DNA of 40,313 bases, from sequence record MT496969.1; one strand, given 5' to 3'. Each line of letters opens with the position of its first letter. The first letter of the stretch is position 1. The position numbers and the translations under genes are program-made. The DNA is from Escherichia phage Mt1B1_P3. The notes beneath the pieces are model-generated. The model was not told the origin of the DNA. It ran no database searches and saw nothing but the letters and a program-made list of their open reading frames with translations. This document shows, piece by piece, positions 1 to 40,313 of the stretch.

Positions 1-202
1 AGAGACTCAAAGAAGACCTATAGCCTCTACCTATCGTCCTTCCATAAGCCATAGCCTAGACCTATCGTTGACCTGAAGTCCTGACCATCGGTCCAACCTT
101 ATGACAGACTGGCTGTGACTGCAAGGAGTAGTAACGGGTAGGGCCTTTGGTCTGGACTTAAAGAGGGCCTATGGGGAGACTTGAGGTTCTTGAACTGTGA
201 GA
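1..202. repeat. Left direct terminal repeat (DTR)
   Basis: Bases 1-202 recur at 40112-40313; the window ends inside the repeat, so DTR is at least 202 bp. Typical of T7-like linear genomes. Confidence 0.85.
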
Positions 203-240: not shown

Positions 241-285
241 ACTGTAGGCCACAGCCACTGTAGGTCAAGGACCGTAGGTCAGGCG
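241..285. repeat. Short ctgtagg(t/c)ca-type repeats just inside the left DTR
   Basis: actgtaggcca...actgtaggtca...accgtaggtca in tandem-like array; same core (ctgtagg) as the array near the right DTR. Confidence 0.5.
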
Positions 286-441
286 ACACTAGGATAGACC
301 AATAAGTAGGATGACCCTAAGTGAGCTTCTCTTAAGGTGTTACCTAAAGTCCTTGACTACAGTAGCTAAGGTCAGTAGAGTGGGTCTTTATCCACGTACT
401 GACCTTAGGTCTTCCGCTCATGAATCGTTACCATGATTGCG

Positions 442-780: not shown

Positions 781-803
781 CTTCCCTATAGTGATAGTTA
801 AGT
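781..803 (-). promoter_or_regulatory. Phage RNAP promoter (phiOR-like), TSS about 786
   Basis: Minus strand ACTTAACTATCACTATAGGGAAG; matches the 10-copy consensus; lies between gene 19 and gene 19.5 as phiOR does in T7. Confidence 0.6.
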
Positions 804-897
804 CCAAACTCCTTGTAAAACAGTAGGTTAGACTGGTAGTAACTATAGGTTACTAACTGCTTATTAATTCAGTTTTCGCCTATAGTTATTCATTCAG

Positions 898-2661
898 CTA
901 GTGGAACGTAACGTAGGACCCTAGTCCCAGCTCGTCGTCCGTATCGTGAGTTACCCGGACCCCATTGTCCCAGAACTCCGTGTGGATGGACTCGAAGCCT
1001 TTCCGTGGGTTCTCCATCTGTTCCTCCAGCCACTCCTCAGTGACTTCACGTTCGCCTTTGTTGGCATCCTTCGCCATAGACTCAACGAAGAACTGTACAC
1101 CGATAGCCAGCGCATCAAGTCGGTCATCGTGTGCCAATGCTCCACGTTCACGAGAGATACGTGTCATCTGGTAGAAGAGAGAATAGATAGGGTTACGAAC
1201 ACCATCCTTATCAGAGGCAGACTGGTAATCTTGGACGATAGCAGCAGCGTTGACGATAAGTCGGTGAGACCCCATGATAGGCTCCAGAACGTCACAGATG
1301 CGTAGTTCCTTCTGACCCTTACTCTTCACTTCAGTTACAGCAGCAGGATGAATACGGGAAGCTACAGGCTTGAATAGCTCAAGGTACATACCATCACCGA
1401 AGTTACCCTCAATGACGTATTCGTTTACCTTCCACTTACGACCAATCTTAGCCAAGGCTTCCAGCGTAGAGTCTTCATAGCCACCTCGCATACCGCCAAC
1501 TTCCATAGCGAAGATGTAGCCGTTTAGCTGGTACAGTACCGCATAACCTGTTTCATCCTTACCACGACCACTAGGGTCAATGACCAGAATCTTCTGGGTG
1601 TACGAACTGAAGGCAGAACCTACAGTCTGATACGTGTGGTATGAGTCACCCATGAGTCCAACGTTAGGAACGTCCTCACGCTTGTTCTGAGGGTTAGGAA
1701 GCCATTGGTAGACCATTGGGCTAGACGCTGGGTCCAAGTCTGCTACGATAAGGTCACGGAGCTTCAGAGGGTACTTCTCGGCATCACTCAGGTTAGGGTT
1801 AAGCATGAATTGTAGAGCGAAGCCAGCTTTACCATAGGACAGCTCACGTTCCTTCAGGTCCGTATCATCGAATCGTACTTCATCGGTAGGACGCCAGTAG
1901 AAGGACTCAGGGTCCTCTTCAAGCTCTGCCTGAAGCATAGGAGCCAGACGGTCTCCGTAAGACTGCCAGTCCTTCTTATCGCGTGGGTAGCGAGCGGGCC
2001 AGATGGTAGTGGTATATCCACGACCTTCCAGCTCACGATACAAGGTCATCTCGTTCTGAGGAGTACCCAGATAGATGATTGTACCTCCCGGCTTCAGGAT
2101 AGCGTCGAACTCTTTCACAAGCTCTGACAGACGGTCTCGTGCAGCCTGAGTCGCTGAGTTGTTCGGAACCTCCACGTCATCGGCAATCAGGATGTCAGCA
2201 CGACTACCAGTCAACTGACCAGTGATACCAACGGACTTAACCGAAGGTGAGTGATCTGGCTTGGCTGGTCCAACGTCGAAGCTGATAACAGCATCTCGCT
2301 GCCCCTGCTTAGGTTTAAGTTCCTGAAGCTGAGGCATGAGGTCGATGATTCGCTTGATGAATATGGAGTTCGCATCTGCTCGTTCCTTTGAGGCCGACAC
2401 AATCATGAACTTCAAGTCTGGGTTGTTCCACAGTTTCCATACCACGAATGCGCACGTTATGAATGACTTCCCGATACCACGGAACGCCTGTAGGATGAAA
2501 CGCCTGTTGTCCCCAGCCGATAGTTTCTTCGCCATGTCAATCTGACAGCGAGTCGGGACTGGTAGTGACAGGGCTTTCCACAGGACGAACAGGAAGAACA
2601 CGAAGTCTGCCTTCATACGGGCAGTCATTAGCGCCTGACGCGCCACTAAATCTTTACTCAA
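898..2661 (-). CDS. 19: Terminase large subunit (DNA maturase B)
   Basis: 587 aa; collinear with T7 gp19 ([26 protein letters not shown] Walker A-like, [12 protein letters not shown]). Start appears to be TTG overlapping the Rz stop (TTGA) with AAGGAGGT 7 nt upstream. Confidence 0.95.
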
Positions 2662-3208: not shown

Positions 3209-3472
3209 TTATTGAACACCATACCCGGTGTCATTATCTTCTGTAGCTGAGAGCACCTTATCGTACTCTGCGTTCAGGGCCTCCATATCAGCGAGCGTCT
3301 TCTCGTCAACAGACACCTTGCTTAACACAAAGTTGTGACGAGCAAGCAGCTTCTCAATGGCGTTGTAGAGCTGAGGTGAACGCTTAGTGTCATCCCGCAG
3401 GTCTTGCAGCATGAGTCGAGCACGTTCAGTATCTAGCATTAAGAGGAACTTCTCTAAGTCCATCTGCGTCAT
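3209..3472 (-). CDS. 18: Terminase small subunit (DNA packaging protein A)
   Basis: 87 aa; size and position match T7 gp18 (89 aa); stop overlaps holin gene start. Confidence 0.8.
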   Translation of the reverse strand: MTQMDLEKFLLMLDTERARLMLQDLRDDTKRSPQLYNAIEKLLARHNFVLSKVSVDEKTLADMEALNAEYDKVLSATEDNDTGYGVQ

Positions 3473-3777: not shown

Positions 3778-6700
3778 TTACTTCTGTTCAAGAGCAGAAA
3801 GTCTGGCTTCGATTCTTTCCAGTTTTCTTCTCTGATAAGCGGCTTCAGCAAAGAAAATTCCGTCAGGCCGAACACCCCACTCCTCACCCTCTTCATGGAT
3901 AACCACCTCAGTGAATACAGGCTCTTCCGTAGTAGTGACATTACCCTCCTCGTCAGTGTGTTCAATGATTTCATTGTGCGAAAATACCGTATCGGTCATC
4001 CGTGGATACTTGTCATAGCACAGAACGGCATAACGACAATTCGTACTGTTTTCATCCATCAGACCGTGTGCAATGAATACATCACGAATTTGCTGAGCAA
4101 TAACCCCGAAGTGAATACGAGCATCATTGCCTTTCAGTTGAACAGCATCTAACCATTGATACATGATGTAGTGAACGTCACCCCAGGCATCTAGGAAAGC
4201 ATCATCAAAAACTACCGGCTCTGTTTTCTTCTCCCCATTAGAAGTAACAATAGGGTTGCTTCCGAGATATGCAGTTGTGAAACGGTTACTTGGTCCACCA
4301 AGCGCAATGACGTTATCGTTATAAGGCTTAACGTCAGCAGTCTGGAACAGATGCTCATCACCATTGTAAACTATTCGCCTTGAGTCTGTGTTATTTGCAC
4401 CATAAAGCGTAATCTGTGCGCCAGTCGTTGAACTGGTGCCTTCACCTCCGCAAAATATGGTGCGCTGCCCTGCCGGGTTATCAGTCGGTATAGACTTCCC
4501 GATAAACCCATATTCACCTTCCATTAAAACTTCAGAGCGAATGTTACTACTGGTGCTGGCTCTAAGGGTCACATGACCTAAACCCAAATCCCCTGTAAAT
4601 TCCATTGGTGCAGGAACAGTGCGAATCCCATTCGTATCAAAAAACACGGGAACAGCTCTGTTAGGTACAGCACCATACCTGAAATCACGGGAAACATGAT
4701 TGCTTGGGCCAATCTTCATTTTGTAGCAATACAAATCTGAGGGATGACCATCCGCTTTGAATGGGTCCTTCGCTGAGTTATCTCCATAGGTCCATGGGTT
4801 AAAATGGTCCTCTCCACCAAACATGTAGTAGATGTAATTATCCTTCACAACTACCGAACCAACACCTACACCTGAGTTAACTATTCCGCCCTGATAAATC
4901 TGGTCAGTGATGTTAACCCATTCAATATCATCTGCATTCCAATTGTTTACATTCAATCGTGCATAGAAGGTGCGAGGATAAGATGCCTTGTAACGATCAT
5001 CTGGTGCACCTGCTTCCCATTCATTTTCTGCACGTTCTGAACCAAACATAATAAGGTCATCCCCTACTTTAGCAAAAGGTAATGTAGTATGATGAACATT
5101 ATGTGGAAATCTCAGTGACTCCCAAGTCTGACCTATGTCTCTACTACGATGCAAAGAGCTACCTAGCCTATCCCCACGAGTGCCACGAGTGATAAGGTAT
5201 AATACACCGTCATAGTACTTTATGCACGGCTCTGACGCATCTGGTTCATACTCAGATGGTATCTGACGGCGAACATAACTAGATGGGCTATTGAAAGCGT
5301 CAGGGAAGTAGAAAAGCCCAACTTCGCGTGGAGCTACATCGCCTTGATGATAACCCATAACAAAGCCATTGTTATCAATAGTAGCAAAGCTATGCACCTC
5401 TGTGACACGAGGGATTAGACCAAGGTCTGTCTTACGCCATGGAGACTTATGGAAAGACGTACCCATGTGCCAATTCTTTCCAGCGTTATTCAAATCTGAA
5501 GTCTGCTGGTTGGGTGTAAGAACCGTGAAGTTGTCCTTATCTATTACGGTTGCAACAGTCATATCACCGGATACACCTGTTACCGCAGAATTAGAGAAGT
5601 TAACAAAATCACCCACGAATAGTCCGTGGTCTGGTACATGTATTGTTGCATATTGCTGATTTGCAGCTTTAGTGATACCACCAGTAAGATGCAGGCTACG
5701 AGACATGGGGCGATCCCATAATGCACAATTGGTTAATGCGTTCTTGGCTAAAGTACGTGTTTCAATCATGGCAAACAGACGGTTGCGACATACACCCATA
5801 CTCATACAGTGATAGTTCACTGTAGGGTAATCTGGATGCAGATCAGTTAGCCACTCTGGAGTAGACCATGTTTGACCATCATCACCAGACTTAACCCATG
5901 ATACATGCAGACGACTAACACCATGACGATCGCTACCCATGTAAGGTGCATATATCACATTATCATATACGAACGCTTTATCCTGAGGCCACGCATTGTA
6001 ATAAGGGGTGTCCGTTATTTTGAACAACTCACCCTGAACAAATTCCTCAGAGGCATAATAAAGAGGTTGTCCGGGAATGCGCTCATAAACGAAACGAGTG
6101 TTGATGAAGCGACTAATGTCAGGTAGGGATGTGACCTTATATGTCTTCCCATTGCCATTAATCTTTTGTCCAACCGGTATGTCGTTTAATGCGCTCGTTA
6201 ACGCTGCTGTATCATCAGTGACGCCATCACCTTTAGCACCCCAACCACGAACATCTTTTTCATCAAGCCAGCGTGCTCTATGTAATTCAGGGTAGAGTAT
6301 TGCCCCTTCAGGATTTGAAATCTGACTTCTTAAAGCAGCATCACCAACACTAACCCACGCACCTAATCCAATCCCACCGGAAGTTTCAGGAGTTGAACCA
6401 GCAGGAACGTTCTTTGGAAGCGTACCATCCCAGCGGTAATAATCACCATCCTCTTCCCATAGCAGGACCTCGCTCCATGTTGTAACGTTGTAGCCTTTCT
6501 CGAAGGAGCGACGGGTAATATAGCCAAGTCTACCAGCTTCCCTGATACTCTCAGCGATTCGTCGTGCTTCGTCCTCGCTATCCTTAGCGTTGCCAGCAGA
6601 GCTACTAGCAGCATCGGCATATTCCTTCGCTAAGTCAACCGTTTGGTCTCGACCTTCTTCTGCAATATGGATAGCCTGAAGCTCTGAATTAGTCAGGTCA

Positions 6701-6972
6701 CTAGCTGTCAACACTGAGCCATTCCTGAAGTCTACCACTAAGTCAGTTCCAGTCTGACGGTGAATACGAACGATGTCGAAACCTGATTGGTCAACCAACA
6801 TCTCAATCATCGTTGGATTAAGGAATCGGTAATCTCGACCAACTTCCAGTACACGGTTTAGGGTAGGGTTAGAGCTATTCACCAGCGTAACAACAATAAA
6901 CGTTCTGGCTAGGTAGTCGAACTCAATCCTGTACTGAGTGTTTCCTGAAGGGAATTGTGTAATCGTGGACAT
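3778..6972 (-). CDS. 17: Tailspike endosialidase (endo-N-acetylneuraminidase) with T7 gp17-like N-terminal adaptor and C-terminal intramolecular chaperone domain
   Basis: 1064 aa. N-terminus (FDYLARTFIVVTLV...DYRF...LVDFRNGSVLTASDL...IHIAEEGRD) aligns to T7 tail fiber N-domain; two Asp-box motifs SGDDGQTW and SRDIGQTW (sialidase beta-propeller); C-terminal GNDARIHFGVIAQQIRDV...AVLCYDKY resembles autocleaving chaperone domain of K1F endoNF. AGGAGG-CATA-ATG start. Confidence 0.93.
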   Translation of the reverse strand: MSTITQFPSGNTQYRIEFDYLARTFIVVTLVNSSNPTLNRVLEVGRDYRFLNPTMIEMLVDQSGFDIVRIHRQTGTDLVVDFRNGSVLTASDLTNSELQAIHIAEEGRDQTVDLAKEYADAASSSAGNAKDSEDEARRIAESIREAGRLGYITRRSFEKGYNVTTWSEVLLWEEDGDYYRWDGTLPKNVPAGSTPETSGGIGLGAWVSVGDAALRSQISNPEGAILYPELHRARWLDEKDVRGWGAKGDGVTDDTAALTSALNDIPVGQKINGNGKTYKVTSLPDISRFINTRFVYERIPGQPLYYASEEFVQGELFKITDTPYYNAWPQDKAFVYDNVIYAPYMGSDRHGVSRLHVSWVKSGDDGQTWSTPEWLTDLHPDYPTVNYHCMSMGVCRNRLFAMIETRTLAKNALTNCALWDRPMSRSLHLTGGITKAANQQYATIHVPDHGLFVGDFVNFSNSAVTGVSGDMTVATVIDKDNFTVLTPNQQTSDLNNAGKNWHMGTSFHKSPWRKTDLGLIPRVTEVHSFATIDNNGFVMGYHQGDVAPREVGLFYFPDAFNSPSSYVRRQIPSEYEPDASEPCIKYYDGVLYLITRGTRGDRLGSSLHRSRDIGQTWESLRFPHNVHHTTLPFAKVGDDLIMFGSERAENEWEAGAPDDRYKASYPRTFYARLNVNNWNADDIEWVNITDQIYQGGIVNSGVGVGSVVVKDNYIYYMFGGEDHFNPWTYGDNSAKDPFKADGHPSDLYCYKMKIGPSNHVSRDFRYGAVPNRAVPVFFDTNGIRTVPAPMEFTGDLGLGHVTLRASTSSNIRSEVLMEGEYGFIGKSIPTDNPAGQRTIFCGGEGTSSTTGAQITLYGANNTDSRRIVYNGDEHLFQTADVKPYNDNVIALGGPSNRFTTAYLGSNPIVTSNGEKKTEPVVFDDAFLDAWGDVHYIMYQWLDAVQLKGNDARIHFGVIAQQIRDVFIAHGLMDENSTNCRYAVLCYDKYPRMTDTVFSHNEIIEHTDEEGNVTTTEEPVFTEVVIHEEGEEWGVRPDGIFFAEAAYQRRKLERIEARLSALEQK

Positions 6973-38352: not shown

Positions 38353-38520
38353 CTATGGTAAATATTTCTTGTCCTCAGCGTGTAGGCTGTCGTGTATGCG
38401 CTTGCGTCTCCTGTAGACCACTTTCAAGAGGCGCATAGACTCCTCGTGGTTTAATCTCCCGGTCTTGACCATAAGCCGGGCGTTGGTGACGTGGTGCTGG
38501 CAGAGACCATAAGTTACCAT
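38353..38520 (-). CDS. Small early ORF (55 aa), hypothetical
   Basis: Hand translation MVTYGLCQHHVTNARLMVKTGRLNHEESMRLLKVVYRRRKRIHDSLHAEDKKYLP; ATG overlaps Ocr stop (TGATG), GAGGAGG 10 nt upstream. Confidence 0.4.
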   Translation of the reverse strand: MVTYGLCQHHVTNARLMVKTGRLNHEESMRLLKVVYRRRKRIHDSLHAEDKKYLP

Positions 38521-39050
38521 CACTCGCAGTCCTCCTCAGCAGCCTCAGGATCGAACACTACGTTATCGTTGATGTCTTCGACCTGCATGTGAAAACCTTC
38601 CTCATAGAGTTCTTTTGCACATGCAATAGCCTCGCAAAGTGATACAGCTGCCTCAATTATCTCGCCTGTTCTAGTGTCAACTACCCAATATTCAGCCTTT
38701 TCGTCCTCCTCTTCAGCCTTTTCGTCTTCCTCTTCAGCCTCAAACCAGACCACCTCAGAGCTATTAGACACATCGTTATACAGTGCCTCATAGATGCGAG
38801 CTTGTAGTATACGCGTTACGTCCTTGGTCTCAGGCATCAGCCCAGAGTCTTCGAACTCATTGTCAATACCATCAGCAGCCATCACCGTGTAAATCTCGTG
38901 GTAATAATGCGGAACATTACCGTCTACGACCTCATGCAGCGCATCACTGTAGTCATCGCCTTCAGCTATTTCGTCGCACTGAATACGCTCATTGAACAGC
39001 TCAACGGTTGCAGCCAGCAGCTCATAGTATGCGTTAGCGTTACGTTCCAT
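38520..39050 (-). CDS. ocr: Ocr-like DNA-mimic anti-restriction protein (gp0.3) with C-terminal extension
   Basis: Core [47 protein letters not shown] matches T7 Ocr ([46 protein letters not shown]); 176 aa vs 117 aa in T7, with duplicated EEDEKAE and about 55 extra C-terminal residues. Confidence 0.9.
   Translation of the reverse strand: [176 protein letters not shown]
38690..38740. repeat. 21-bp tandem duplication inside ocr (encodes EEDEKAE x2)
   Basis: cagccttttcgtcctcctctt / cagccttttcgtcttcctctt adjacent copies on plus strand. Confidence 0.8.
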
Positions 39051-39065
39051 AGTTATATCCTCTCA

Positions 39066-39124
39066 GTTGTTAGTGACTATCAGTCAGGCCGCTATAAGTC
39101 TAACGACCTGTAGTTAATCACTCT
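39066..39124 (-). promoter_or_regulatory. Putative RNase III processing hairpin (R0.5-like)
   Basis: GTTAGTGACTATCAGTCAGGCCGC-loop-ACGACCTGTAGTTAATCACT; imperfect long hairpin between first early ORF and ocr. Confidence 0.45.
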
Positions 39125-39378
39125 CAGTTAGCGAAATAAGGAGCTGAGACGCCCGCTGTAGGACTCACGGTTATCTGCGAATCTATCAGGTAGGTCTCGT
39201 TGTCTATGCGCACAGTATCTATGCTGTAGTTGCTGAACGGCTTGCTTGAGACCTTGCGCACTACCACACGGTGACGCGCTCCTGTCATCTCTTTAAGCTG
39301 AATCCACGCATAACCTTTAGTGTTCACGAATACTTCATTGTGATTAGTGATTGTGCTTAAGTGTTTCATAGTGTTCAT
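39124..39378 (-). CDS. First early ORF (84 aa), hypothetical
   Basis: Open frame fills the interval between two RNase III-like elements upstream of ocr; no obvious Shine-Dalgarno; no recognised motif. Confidence 0.45.
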   Translation of the reverse strand: MNTMKHLSTITNHNEVFVNTKGYAWIQLKEMTGARHRVVVRKVSSKPFSNYSIDTVRIDNETYLIDSQITVSPTAGVSAPYFAN

Positions 39379-39385
39379 CCGTTAA

Positions 39386-39449
39386 GTTAGTGACTATCAG
39401 TCAGGGCCTTCAGATGTAGACTCAAAGGCCCTGTAGTTAGTCGCTATCT
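39386..39449 (-). promoter_or_regulatory. Putative RNase III processing hairpin (R0.3-like) in early leader
   Basis: Perfect 8-bp inverted repeat AGGGCCTT (39403-39410) / AAGGCCCT (39425-39432) with 14-nt loop, flanked by imperfectly complementary arms. Confidence 0.5.
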
Positions 39450-39678: not shown

Positions 39679-39708
39679 ATAATACTTTAATTATATACTT
39701 CTTGTCAA
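39679..39708 (-). promoter_or_regulatory. Candidate host sigma70 early promoter
   Basis: Minus strand TTGACA (plus 39703-39708) then 18 nt then TATTAT (plus 39679-39684); correct orientation for early genes. Only one of the expected multiple early promoters could be picked out by eye. Confidence 0.35.
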
Positions 39709-39999
39709 CTACTTTCTGTCGGTTGCCTGTTGTTCGTATGTCTTACAGGCTGACTACTTAACCGGACCGGACCGGCGTCTTCACTATCCGGTTGTTGCCG
39801 TGTCGTGTTGACGGAAGCTATTAGGCCATATCCTTGACCTATAGTCAATAGGTAATTTGAAATAATACTGATTAAGCTATCGTCGGCCTCATGGTGTAAG
39901 AGGATATAGTCTTTGACTAACATGTCTTGGACCTTAAGTCTATAGCTCTGTGTCTAGTAACTGTAGATCTATGACTGTAGGTGTTGGTGTCTTATGGTT

Positions 40000-40076
40000 G
40001 AGACTGTAGGTTAGTGAGACTGTAGGTTAGTGAGACTGTAGGTTAGTGAGACTGTAGGTTAGTGAGACTGTAGGTG
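40000..40076. repeat. Tandem 16-bp repeats (gagactgtaggttagt x4.8) adjacent to right DTR
   Basis: Four exact copies plus a partial one, preceded by a degenerate copy at 39971-39983. Confidence 0.9.
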
Positions 40077-40111
40077 TAGGACGTAATGTTATACTATAAC
40101 ACTATACAGAT

Positions 40112-40313
40112 AGAGACTCAAAGAAGACCTATAGCCTCTACCTATCGTCCTTCCATAAGCCATAGCCTAGACCTATCGTTGACCTGAAGTCCTGACCATC
40201 GGTCCAACCTTATGACAGACTGGCTGTGACTGCAAGGAGTAGTAACGGGTAGGGCCTTTGGTCTGGACTTAAAGAGGGCCTATGGGGAGACTTGAGGTTC
40301 TTGAACTGTGAGA
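40112..40313. repeat. Right direct terminal repeat (DTR)
   Basis: Identical to bases 1-202. Confidence 0.85.

Follow-up and report, generated by a model that had tools for sequence, protein, structure and literature searches.

What a perfect 16-bp tandem array does beside the terminal repeat of Escherichia phage Mt1B1_P3, and how many units it really contains, are the two questions raised by this locus. Both were addressed using the complete record MT496969.1 (40,313 nt, hereafter the window), which is 93–99.8% identical to Kayfunavirus records including that of K1F (K1F-like phages, Studiervirinae, T7 group). These relatives align to the window on the opposite strand, starting from their position 1, and the phage promoters of the window (a 10-copy family) appear in reverse complement form: relative to the conventional T7 map the window is thus written in reverse complement, and the array that a preliminary description of this DNA had placed at the right end is the canonical left-end, SRL-type array (Table 1). 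The genome is T7-like and exhibits exact direct terminal repeats (DTR; TR) at conserved ends, as expected where SRL/SRR-type arrays occur. Its canonical start is TCTCACAGTT, as in K11 (TCTCACAGTT), with TCTCACAGTG in T7; the junction at the canonical TR end reads GAGTCTCT / ATCTGTAT in Mt1B1_P3 and GTGTCCCT / ATCTGTTA in T7, and K1F has a TR of 179 bp with a boundary homologous to the Mt1B1_P3 TR end.

Table 1. Features at and around the terminal repeats of Mt1B1_P3 (window coordinates).
Feature	Position	Strand	Remarks
DTR, left copy (canonical right TR)	1..202		202 bp, 100% identical to 40112-40313
SRR-type set, 4 heptamers in one orientation	242..293	-	Canonical CCTAGTG, CCTACGG, CCTACAG, CCTACAG; nearest 39 bp upstream of canonical right TR
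Phage-RNAP promoter, phiOR-like position	784..810	-	Member of the 10-copy family containing CTATAGTGATAGTT; T7 phiOR at equivalent place
Two distal non-tandem heptamers, 14 bp apart	39961..39981	-	CTGTAGG at 39975 intact; CTGTAGA at 39961 degenerate, intact in most relatives
Tandem array, SRL-type, canonical left end	39999..40075	-	4.8 x 16 bp; unit on minus strand CCTACAGTCTCACTAA
AT-rich near-palindrome	40084..40104		TAATGTTATA / TATAACACTA; between DTR and array; some relatives only
Sigma-70-like promoter candidate, points into array	40093..40121	-	TTGAGT-17-TATAGT with TG (extended -10); consensus match only
ATCTGTA, abuts DTR	40105..40111	-	Counterpart of T7 class II pause/termination motif ATCTGTT, 6/7 positions
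DTR, right copy (canonical left TR)	40112..40313		202 bp, 100% identical to 1-202; reverse complement begins TCTCACAG, as T7, K11

Tandem Repeats Finder returned the array as the sole strong one in the window, with a period of 16, 4.8 copies, 100% matches and a score of 154, and the longest perfectly periodic run at this place is exactly 77 bp. The exact 16-mer GAGACTGTAGGTTAGT is present in four copies at 40000–40063, and a partial copy of 12 nt comes after them; if as many as three mismatches are allowed, the 16-mer is matched six times, against 0.48 matches expected. In canonical orientation the unit consists of ACCTACAGTC and a 6-nt spacer. Thus, the tandem 16-bp array reported beside the right DTR is confirmed, whilst its placement needs correction: a start at 39971 takes in a separate heptamer (39975–39981) and an 18-nt spacer, and instead of lying immediately inside the DTR the array is separated from it by 36 bp. 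No open reading frame of at least 25 aa overlaps 39999–40075 and no gene is annotated over the array in the relatives examined, so that the non-coding position expected of SRL/SRR-type arrays is the one found; with a strong sigma-70 site at 39708–39679, the array lies between the TR and the early host promoters. The RNA fold of the array is no better than that of shuffled sequences (z +1.35), the Rfam scan of the window gave no matches and the tRNA scan none: a structured RNA family is ruled out by the combination of no Rfam match and no stable fold. A CRISPR array is likewise ruled out, since the units are contiguous, identical and without unique spacers. As for promoters within the array, ACTGTAGG resembles the ACTATAGG of the phage promoter in reverse direction and was rejected by eye, the upstream part of the consensus being missing; no consensus match was found there for a leftward host promoter similar to A0 of T7.

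The existence of the array and the number of its units need to be considered separately. After rotation and reverse-complementing, the independent record OZ035815.1 (Kayfunavirus MT1B1P3) matches the 40,111-bp unit of the window at every base except for an additional 48 bp, equal to three units; judged from this alignment, MT496969.1 and OZ035815.1 evidently represent one phage, recorded with 4.8 and with 7.8 copies. According to our own calculation, a k=77 de Bruijn assembly given a 125-bp array would output at least 77 bp, and the array in the window is 77 bp long, which is the shortest array that such a graph could give. The three-unit difference between the records together with the agreement between 77 bp and the k=77 collapse length makes 4.8 copies a lower bound. 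In another Kayfunavirus, described in 2026, a SPAdes contig broke inside a 15-bp version of the array (AACCTACAGTCCTAC) and local coverage dropped 12.7-fold at 85 bp downstream of the DTR (PMC13298934). On this evidence there is a serious chance, in our judgement only slightly short of even, that the figure of 4.8 is a short-read collapse of an existing array whose true number is 7.8 or heterogeneous in the stock. Against an effect of assembly stands real variation apart from this pair of records: K1F, whose publication dates from 2005, has the array with 1.7 copies, and the Mt1B1_P3 unit occurs in runs of nine different lengths. Comparison among the relatives, the check proposed in the preliminary description, gave perfect runs of 25 to 125 bp (1.7–7.8 copies), and the copy number is thus variable; the assembly artefact that had been named there as a possible refutation applies to the count, given the three extra units of OZ035815.1, and not to the array. 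The array itself is real and the count of 4.8 cannot be trusted. Kayfunavirus assemblies break or collapse at this array, which calls for caution with copy numbers, genome lengths and "ends" published for the genus. A further record, OR594184.1 (SHAK9454), marked circular and "UNVERIFIED", apparently has the TR region in duplicate around the junction, suggestive of an artefact of assembly or circularisation at the junction locus.

Heptamers of the same kind also occur beside the other TR copy. Their starts on the plus strand are 242 and 258 (CTGTAGG), 272 (CCGTAGG) and 287 (CACTAGG), with spacings of 16, 14 and 15, at 40–90 bp inside the DTR. At least three CYKTAGG within 50 bp were obtained in 0/300 first-order Markov simulations of the genome, placing this left-end cluster beyond chance: the ctgtagg-type repeats previously claimed just inside the left DTR are indeed there, as four heptamers on one strand. 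In total, six CTGTAGG are found at the right end and four heptamers at the left end (two of them exact CTGTAGG), all on the plus strand, and same-orientation direct copies of one motif are hence located inside both TR copies, the arrangement expected of SRL/SRR-type arrays.

For the Kayfunavirus comparison, 15 genomes were aligned by their TR boundary, and ATCTGTAT directly after the TR is invariant in 15/15. ATCTGT follows the TR in T3, K11, SP6 and gh-1 too, T7 has ATCTGTT there, and the K11 record labels its positions 180–188 "concatemeric junction". ATCTGT is known from the concatemer junction of T7 as its class II pause/terminator (bioRxiv 10.64898/2026.02.12.705533); a class II pause motif between TR and array, as expected of SRL/SRR-type arrays, is therefore present in Mt1B1_P3. 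E. coli RNAP has also been reported to use the T7 junction element as an extended -10 promoter (bioRxiv 10.64898/2026.02.12.705533), and the sigma-70-like candidate of Mt1B1_P3, straddling the TR boundary and ATCTGTA, forms a parallel. In the remainder of the TR-to-array stretch (40076–40111), 8/15 genomes, Mt1B1_P3 included, carry the palindrome; most others (such as K1F, LM33P1 and SHAK9454) exhibit in its place a run of CCATAAG/CCATAGG-type repeats that look like degenerate relatives of the heptamer. On the far side of the TR, the phiOR-like promoter would, in concatemers, drive transcription across the heptamers and the TR. A strong hairpin was also observed at 360–412 on the minus strand, with this promoter on one side and the heptamers that precede the canonical right TR on the other; its 12-bp arms (CCTAAGGTCAGT / ACTGACCTTAGC, canonical orientation) are kept across relatives.

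Regular direct repeats adjoining an AT-rich palindrome could also be read as an iteron-type replication origin with the repeats as initiator binding sites, and secondary origins of T7 lie near the genome ends. This is the least probable of the explanations considered here and very unlikely. To our knowledge, replication in the T7 group starts from phage-RNAP promoters and involves no Rep-type initiator; about half of the relatives lack the palindrome, the annotations of relatives show no initiator gene beside the array, and no phage promoter adjoins the array, with none of the 10-copy family found between 37271 and 40313.

The TR of T7 is flanked by short repeats, which we take to be those named SRL and SRR; both arrays were reportedly described by Dunn and Studier in 1983. 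Side by side, position, orientation and motif of the two loci match, in agreement with the earlier suggestion that the position of the array mirrors that of the T7 arrays. The T7 left end begins TCTCACAG and its TR is followed at once by ATCTGT; an array of direct-repeat heptamers then lies in a non-coding stretch ahead of the early host promoters, upstream of the other TR copy the heptamer recurs, equally oriented, in a smaller and irregular set, and the top strand is strongly G-poor after the TR. The differences concern detail: the heptamer is CCTAAAG in T7 and CCTACAG in Mt1B1_P3 (1/7 positions); T7 contains ~13 imperfect copies (CCTAAAG or a one-base variant) at 12–13 bp, as compared to perfect 16-bp tandem units in Mt1B1_P3; three CCTAAAG lie within the 160-bp TR of T7, whereas no exact CCTACAG occurs in the TR of Mt1B1_P3; the pause motif ATCTGTT of T7 is ATCTGTA in Mt1B1_P3; and no phiOL-type phage promoter follows the Mt1B1_P3 array. 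As far as sequence comparison can establish homologous loci, the Mt1B1_P3 array is the Kayfunavirus counterpart of the T7 short-repeat arrays flanking the TR. The role of the T7 arrays in concatemer processing is itself a long-standing proposal and not a demonstrated function. Other members of the T7 group carry their own motif after the TR and ATCTGT (T3 CCTAAAG, SP6 CCTTAGT, K11 ACCTGAGG, gh-1 CCATAGG): SP6, K11 and gh-1 depart further from CCTAAAG than Mt1B1_P3 does, and the heptamer is thus lineage-specific. Our literature search returned nothing useful on the SRL and SRR names, on pacB/pacC or on the heptamer, the key T7/T3 packaging papers of 1983–1997 not being among the matches.

Within the genus, an array is present at the equivalent position on the canonical left side in 15/15 Kayfunavirus genomes. 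The unit types are CCTACAGTCTCACTAA and CCTACAGTCTAACCAA, together with the 15-bp units CCTACAGTCCTACAA and CCTACAGTCTAACTA; 15-bp units are found in ZG49 and PDP21P1, for example. In vB_EcoA-Sparklingdew (Kayfunavirus), the repeat shares the CCTACAGTC core and the location just inside the DTR, but has a 15-bp unit (AACCTACAGTCCTAC) with another spacer (PMC13298934), and that study treats it as an assembly feature without a link to the T7 arrays. Downstream of the array, the 15 genomes have two extra heptamers, of which one is degenerate in a few genomes; on the upstream side of the other TR copy, the set of four heptamers hardly varies among 13 relatives. A scan of IMG/VR for three CTGTAGG at 16-bp spacing returned only GA2A and unrelated contigs, and did not help in surveying copy number. 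Throughout the 15 genomes, a core of A-CCTACRG-T-C is constant and spacers and copy number vary. This was quantified on 48 distinct site contexts for the flanks that had not been imposed by the search: position -1 is A in 43/48, position +7 is T in 47/48 and position +8 is C in 34/48, with spacers below 0.7 bit and unit lengths of 15 or 16 bp, so that the element is recognisable from these alignments as approximately ACCTACRGTC.

Such conservation bears directly on the possibility that the array is a neutral minisatellite, namely a slippage-prone, functionless duplication in the non-coding stretch beside the TR, with the shared heptamer reflecting common descent. The units within the genome are 100% identical, pointing to recent amplification, copy number ranges from 1.7 to 7.8 between close relatives, and the TR-to-array stretch has been swapped wholesale in some genomes, all of which would suit neutrality. 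Nevertheless, A-CCTACRG-T-C is kept across unit types, in the two distal sites and in the four sites beyond the TR, and distant lineages retain a short repeated motif at the equivalent place. A kept core with free spacers favours constraint on a core of the size of a binding site over a purely neutral satellite, and we thus regard neutrality as an unlikely, though not negligible, explanation.

Taken as a whole, the explanation that we consider best, and probably correct, is a Kayfunavirus version of a T7-type array with an inferred docking role and a drifting copy number. The anatomy of the locus, its conservation among relatives and its match to T7 are direct observations. The docking role is a more tentative component, argued by analogy and to our mind possible without being the likelier outcome: the direct-repeat 10-mers may serve as redundant, multivalent docking sites for the DNA-maturation/packaging complex at the concatemer junction. 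Repeated terminase-recognition elements are known from the R sites of lambda cosB and from the hexamers flanking the P1 pac cut site. In these systems, too, several short direct repeats flank the site at which the concatemer is cut, which is the analogy behind the preferred explanation; the packaging strategy differs (here exact DTR ends with a duplicated TR), there is no sequence relation, and binding is only proposed for Mt1B1_P3. In a concatemer the order would be phiOR-type promoter, hairpin, 4 x ACCTACRGT, 39 bp and TR (202 bp), and after the TR it would continue with ATCTGTA, 36 bp, n x (ACCTACAGTC + 5–6 nt), 2 heptamers and the early promoters. The docking protein would most likely be the oligomeric small terminase gp18 (window 3209–3472, minus strand) together with gp19 (898–2661, minus strand); the complex would assemble at the junction, at the site of pausing by the phage RNA polymerase, and would determine where the DNA is cut so that every packaged genome regains a complete TR. 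The units, being perfect tandem copies, could grow or shrink in number through slippage or unequal exchange, and were function to need only a threshold number of sites, copy number would drift, as seen in its range of ~2 to 8 in relatives.

Several lines of evidence are consistent with docking. The junction anatomy is the same as that of T7 base by base, the position of the array is shared by the 15 Kayfunavirus genomes, the unconstrained flanks of the core are conserved in the 48 site contexts where the spacers are not, all sites on either side of the TR have one orientation, and the array is non-coding, unstructured and without an Rfam match. Moreover, a short motif of its own is found at this place in each of T3, SP6, K11 and gh-1: T3 and T7, which share CCTAAAG, have gp18 proteins that are 93% identical and interchangeable (PMC3276506), and Mt1B1_P3, which differs in its heptamer, has a gp18 only 52% identical to that of T7. 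This last argument is weak, since divergence runs in parallel across all proteins (for gp19, identity to the T7 protein is 65%). In T3 and T7 the RNAP-lysozyme complex is reported to pause at the junction, engage gp18/gp19 and start maturation, and packaging specificity to reside in gp19 and the DNA near the ends (PMC3276506). These two phages tell each other's DNA apart through gp19 (PMC3276506) and do so despite a shared heptamer, hence the heptamer is not the determinant of specificity, which counts against docking. The same is true of the period: 12–13 bp in T7 and 15–16 bp in Kayfunavirus leave no common helical phasing. A range of 1.7 to 7.8 copies also implies little constraint on dose. 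Finally, deletions in T7 plasmid packaging reportedly revealed (Chung and Hinkle, 1990) that hardly any sequence on the right-hand side of the TR is needed, a result which would make the left-end array dispensable for packaging. The literature searched contained no binding or deletion data and no demonstrated function for any TR-flanking array of the T7 group.

A more specific form of the docking proposal, somewhat less probable again and on balance doubtful, is that gp18 loads sequence-specifically onto the ACCTACRGTC repeats to either side of the TR, with the heptamer of each T7-group lineage matched to its own gp18. If true, the T7 short-repeat arrays would gain a function and the left-end array would be a naturally hypervariable dosage locus for packaging initiation. 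The recognition of the concatemer junction and the regeneration of full TRs in T7-like phages are still poorly understood (PMC13595956), and Kayfunavirus offers natural test material: the 10-mer core is invariant, while the spacers vary and the copy number runs from 2 to 8 among otherwise near-identical genomes.

The base composition of the locus invites one further reading. The stretch 39993–40112 (canonical 202–321) is the most C-skewed 120-nt stretch genome-wide on the canonical strand, with a skew of -0.69 compared to +0.07 overall; skew after the TR is also seen in T7 (-0.49, first 180 nt), K1F (-0.39) and phiKMV (-0.30). If transcribed by host RNAP from the junction promoter, a top strand so rich in C and poor in G, free of RNA structure (z +1.35) and faced by the sigma-70-like candidate, could form a Rho-loading (rut-like) or insulating leader before the early promoters, and the reported promoter activity of the T7 junction with E. 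coli RNAP would be in keeping with this. We nonetheless consider such a transcription element very improbable: the skew is weak in T3, SP6 and gh-1 and absent in K11, it is a trivial consequence of the composition of the motif, and the heptamers beyond the TR are left unexplained.

The preliminary description had also connected the array to hairpins of the early region. Two stable hairpins are found on the minus strand, at 39062–39125 (z -4.5) and 39380–39447 (z -5.5); they share the 20-mer GTTAGTGACTATCAGTCAGG, each has an internal loop, and they look similar to the sites at which RNase III processes the early mRNA of T7. CTGTAG is literally present in each (39108 and 39431), although this hexamer occurs 65 times in the genome and the link to the array thus carries little weight. 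Kinship between hairpins and array was rejected, given that only this common hexamer is shared and that the wider resemblance is lost with the other unit variants; the link is probably a coincidence.

Words related to the heptamer show an uneven distribution across the genome. CTGCAG (a PstI-type site) is absent from the whole window, and CTACAG is found 30 times on the coding strand of open reading frames, compared to 9.6 +/- 2.9 in synonymous-codon shuffles; for CCTACAG the corresponding values are 12 and 2.9, with the reverse orientation enriched more weakly. Site avoidance alone does not account for an excess at the synonymous level. As CCTAAAG is not enriched in the open reading frames of T7, the genome-wide excess of the heptamer is not general to T7-type arrays. 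Elsewhere in the window, a 21-bp tandem repeat (38691–38740; 2.4 copies, 96% matches) lies inside an open reading frame of 176 aa (38520–39050, minus strand) and would encode a repeated 7-residue stretch. A 1064-aa tail protein is encoded at 3778–6972 (minus strand), at the position of a tailspike; it looked like the K1F endosialidase tailspike and is a candidate only, which, if of this type, would imply specificity for the K1 capsule.
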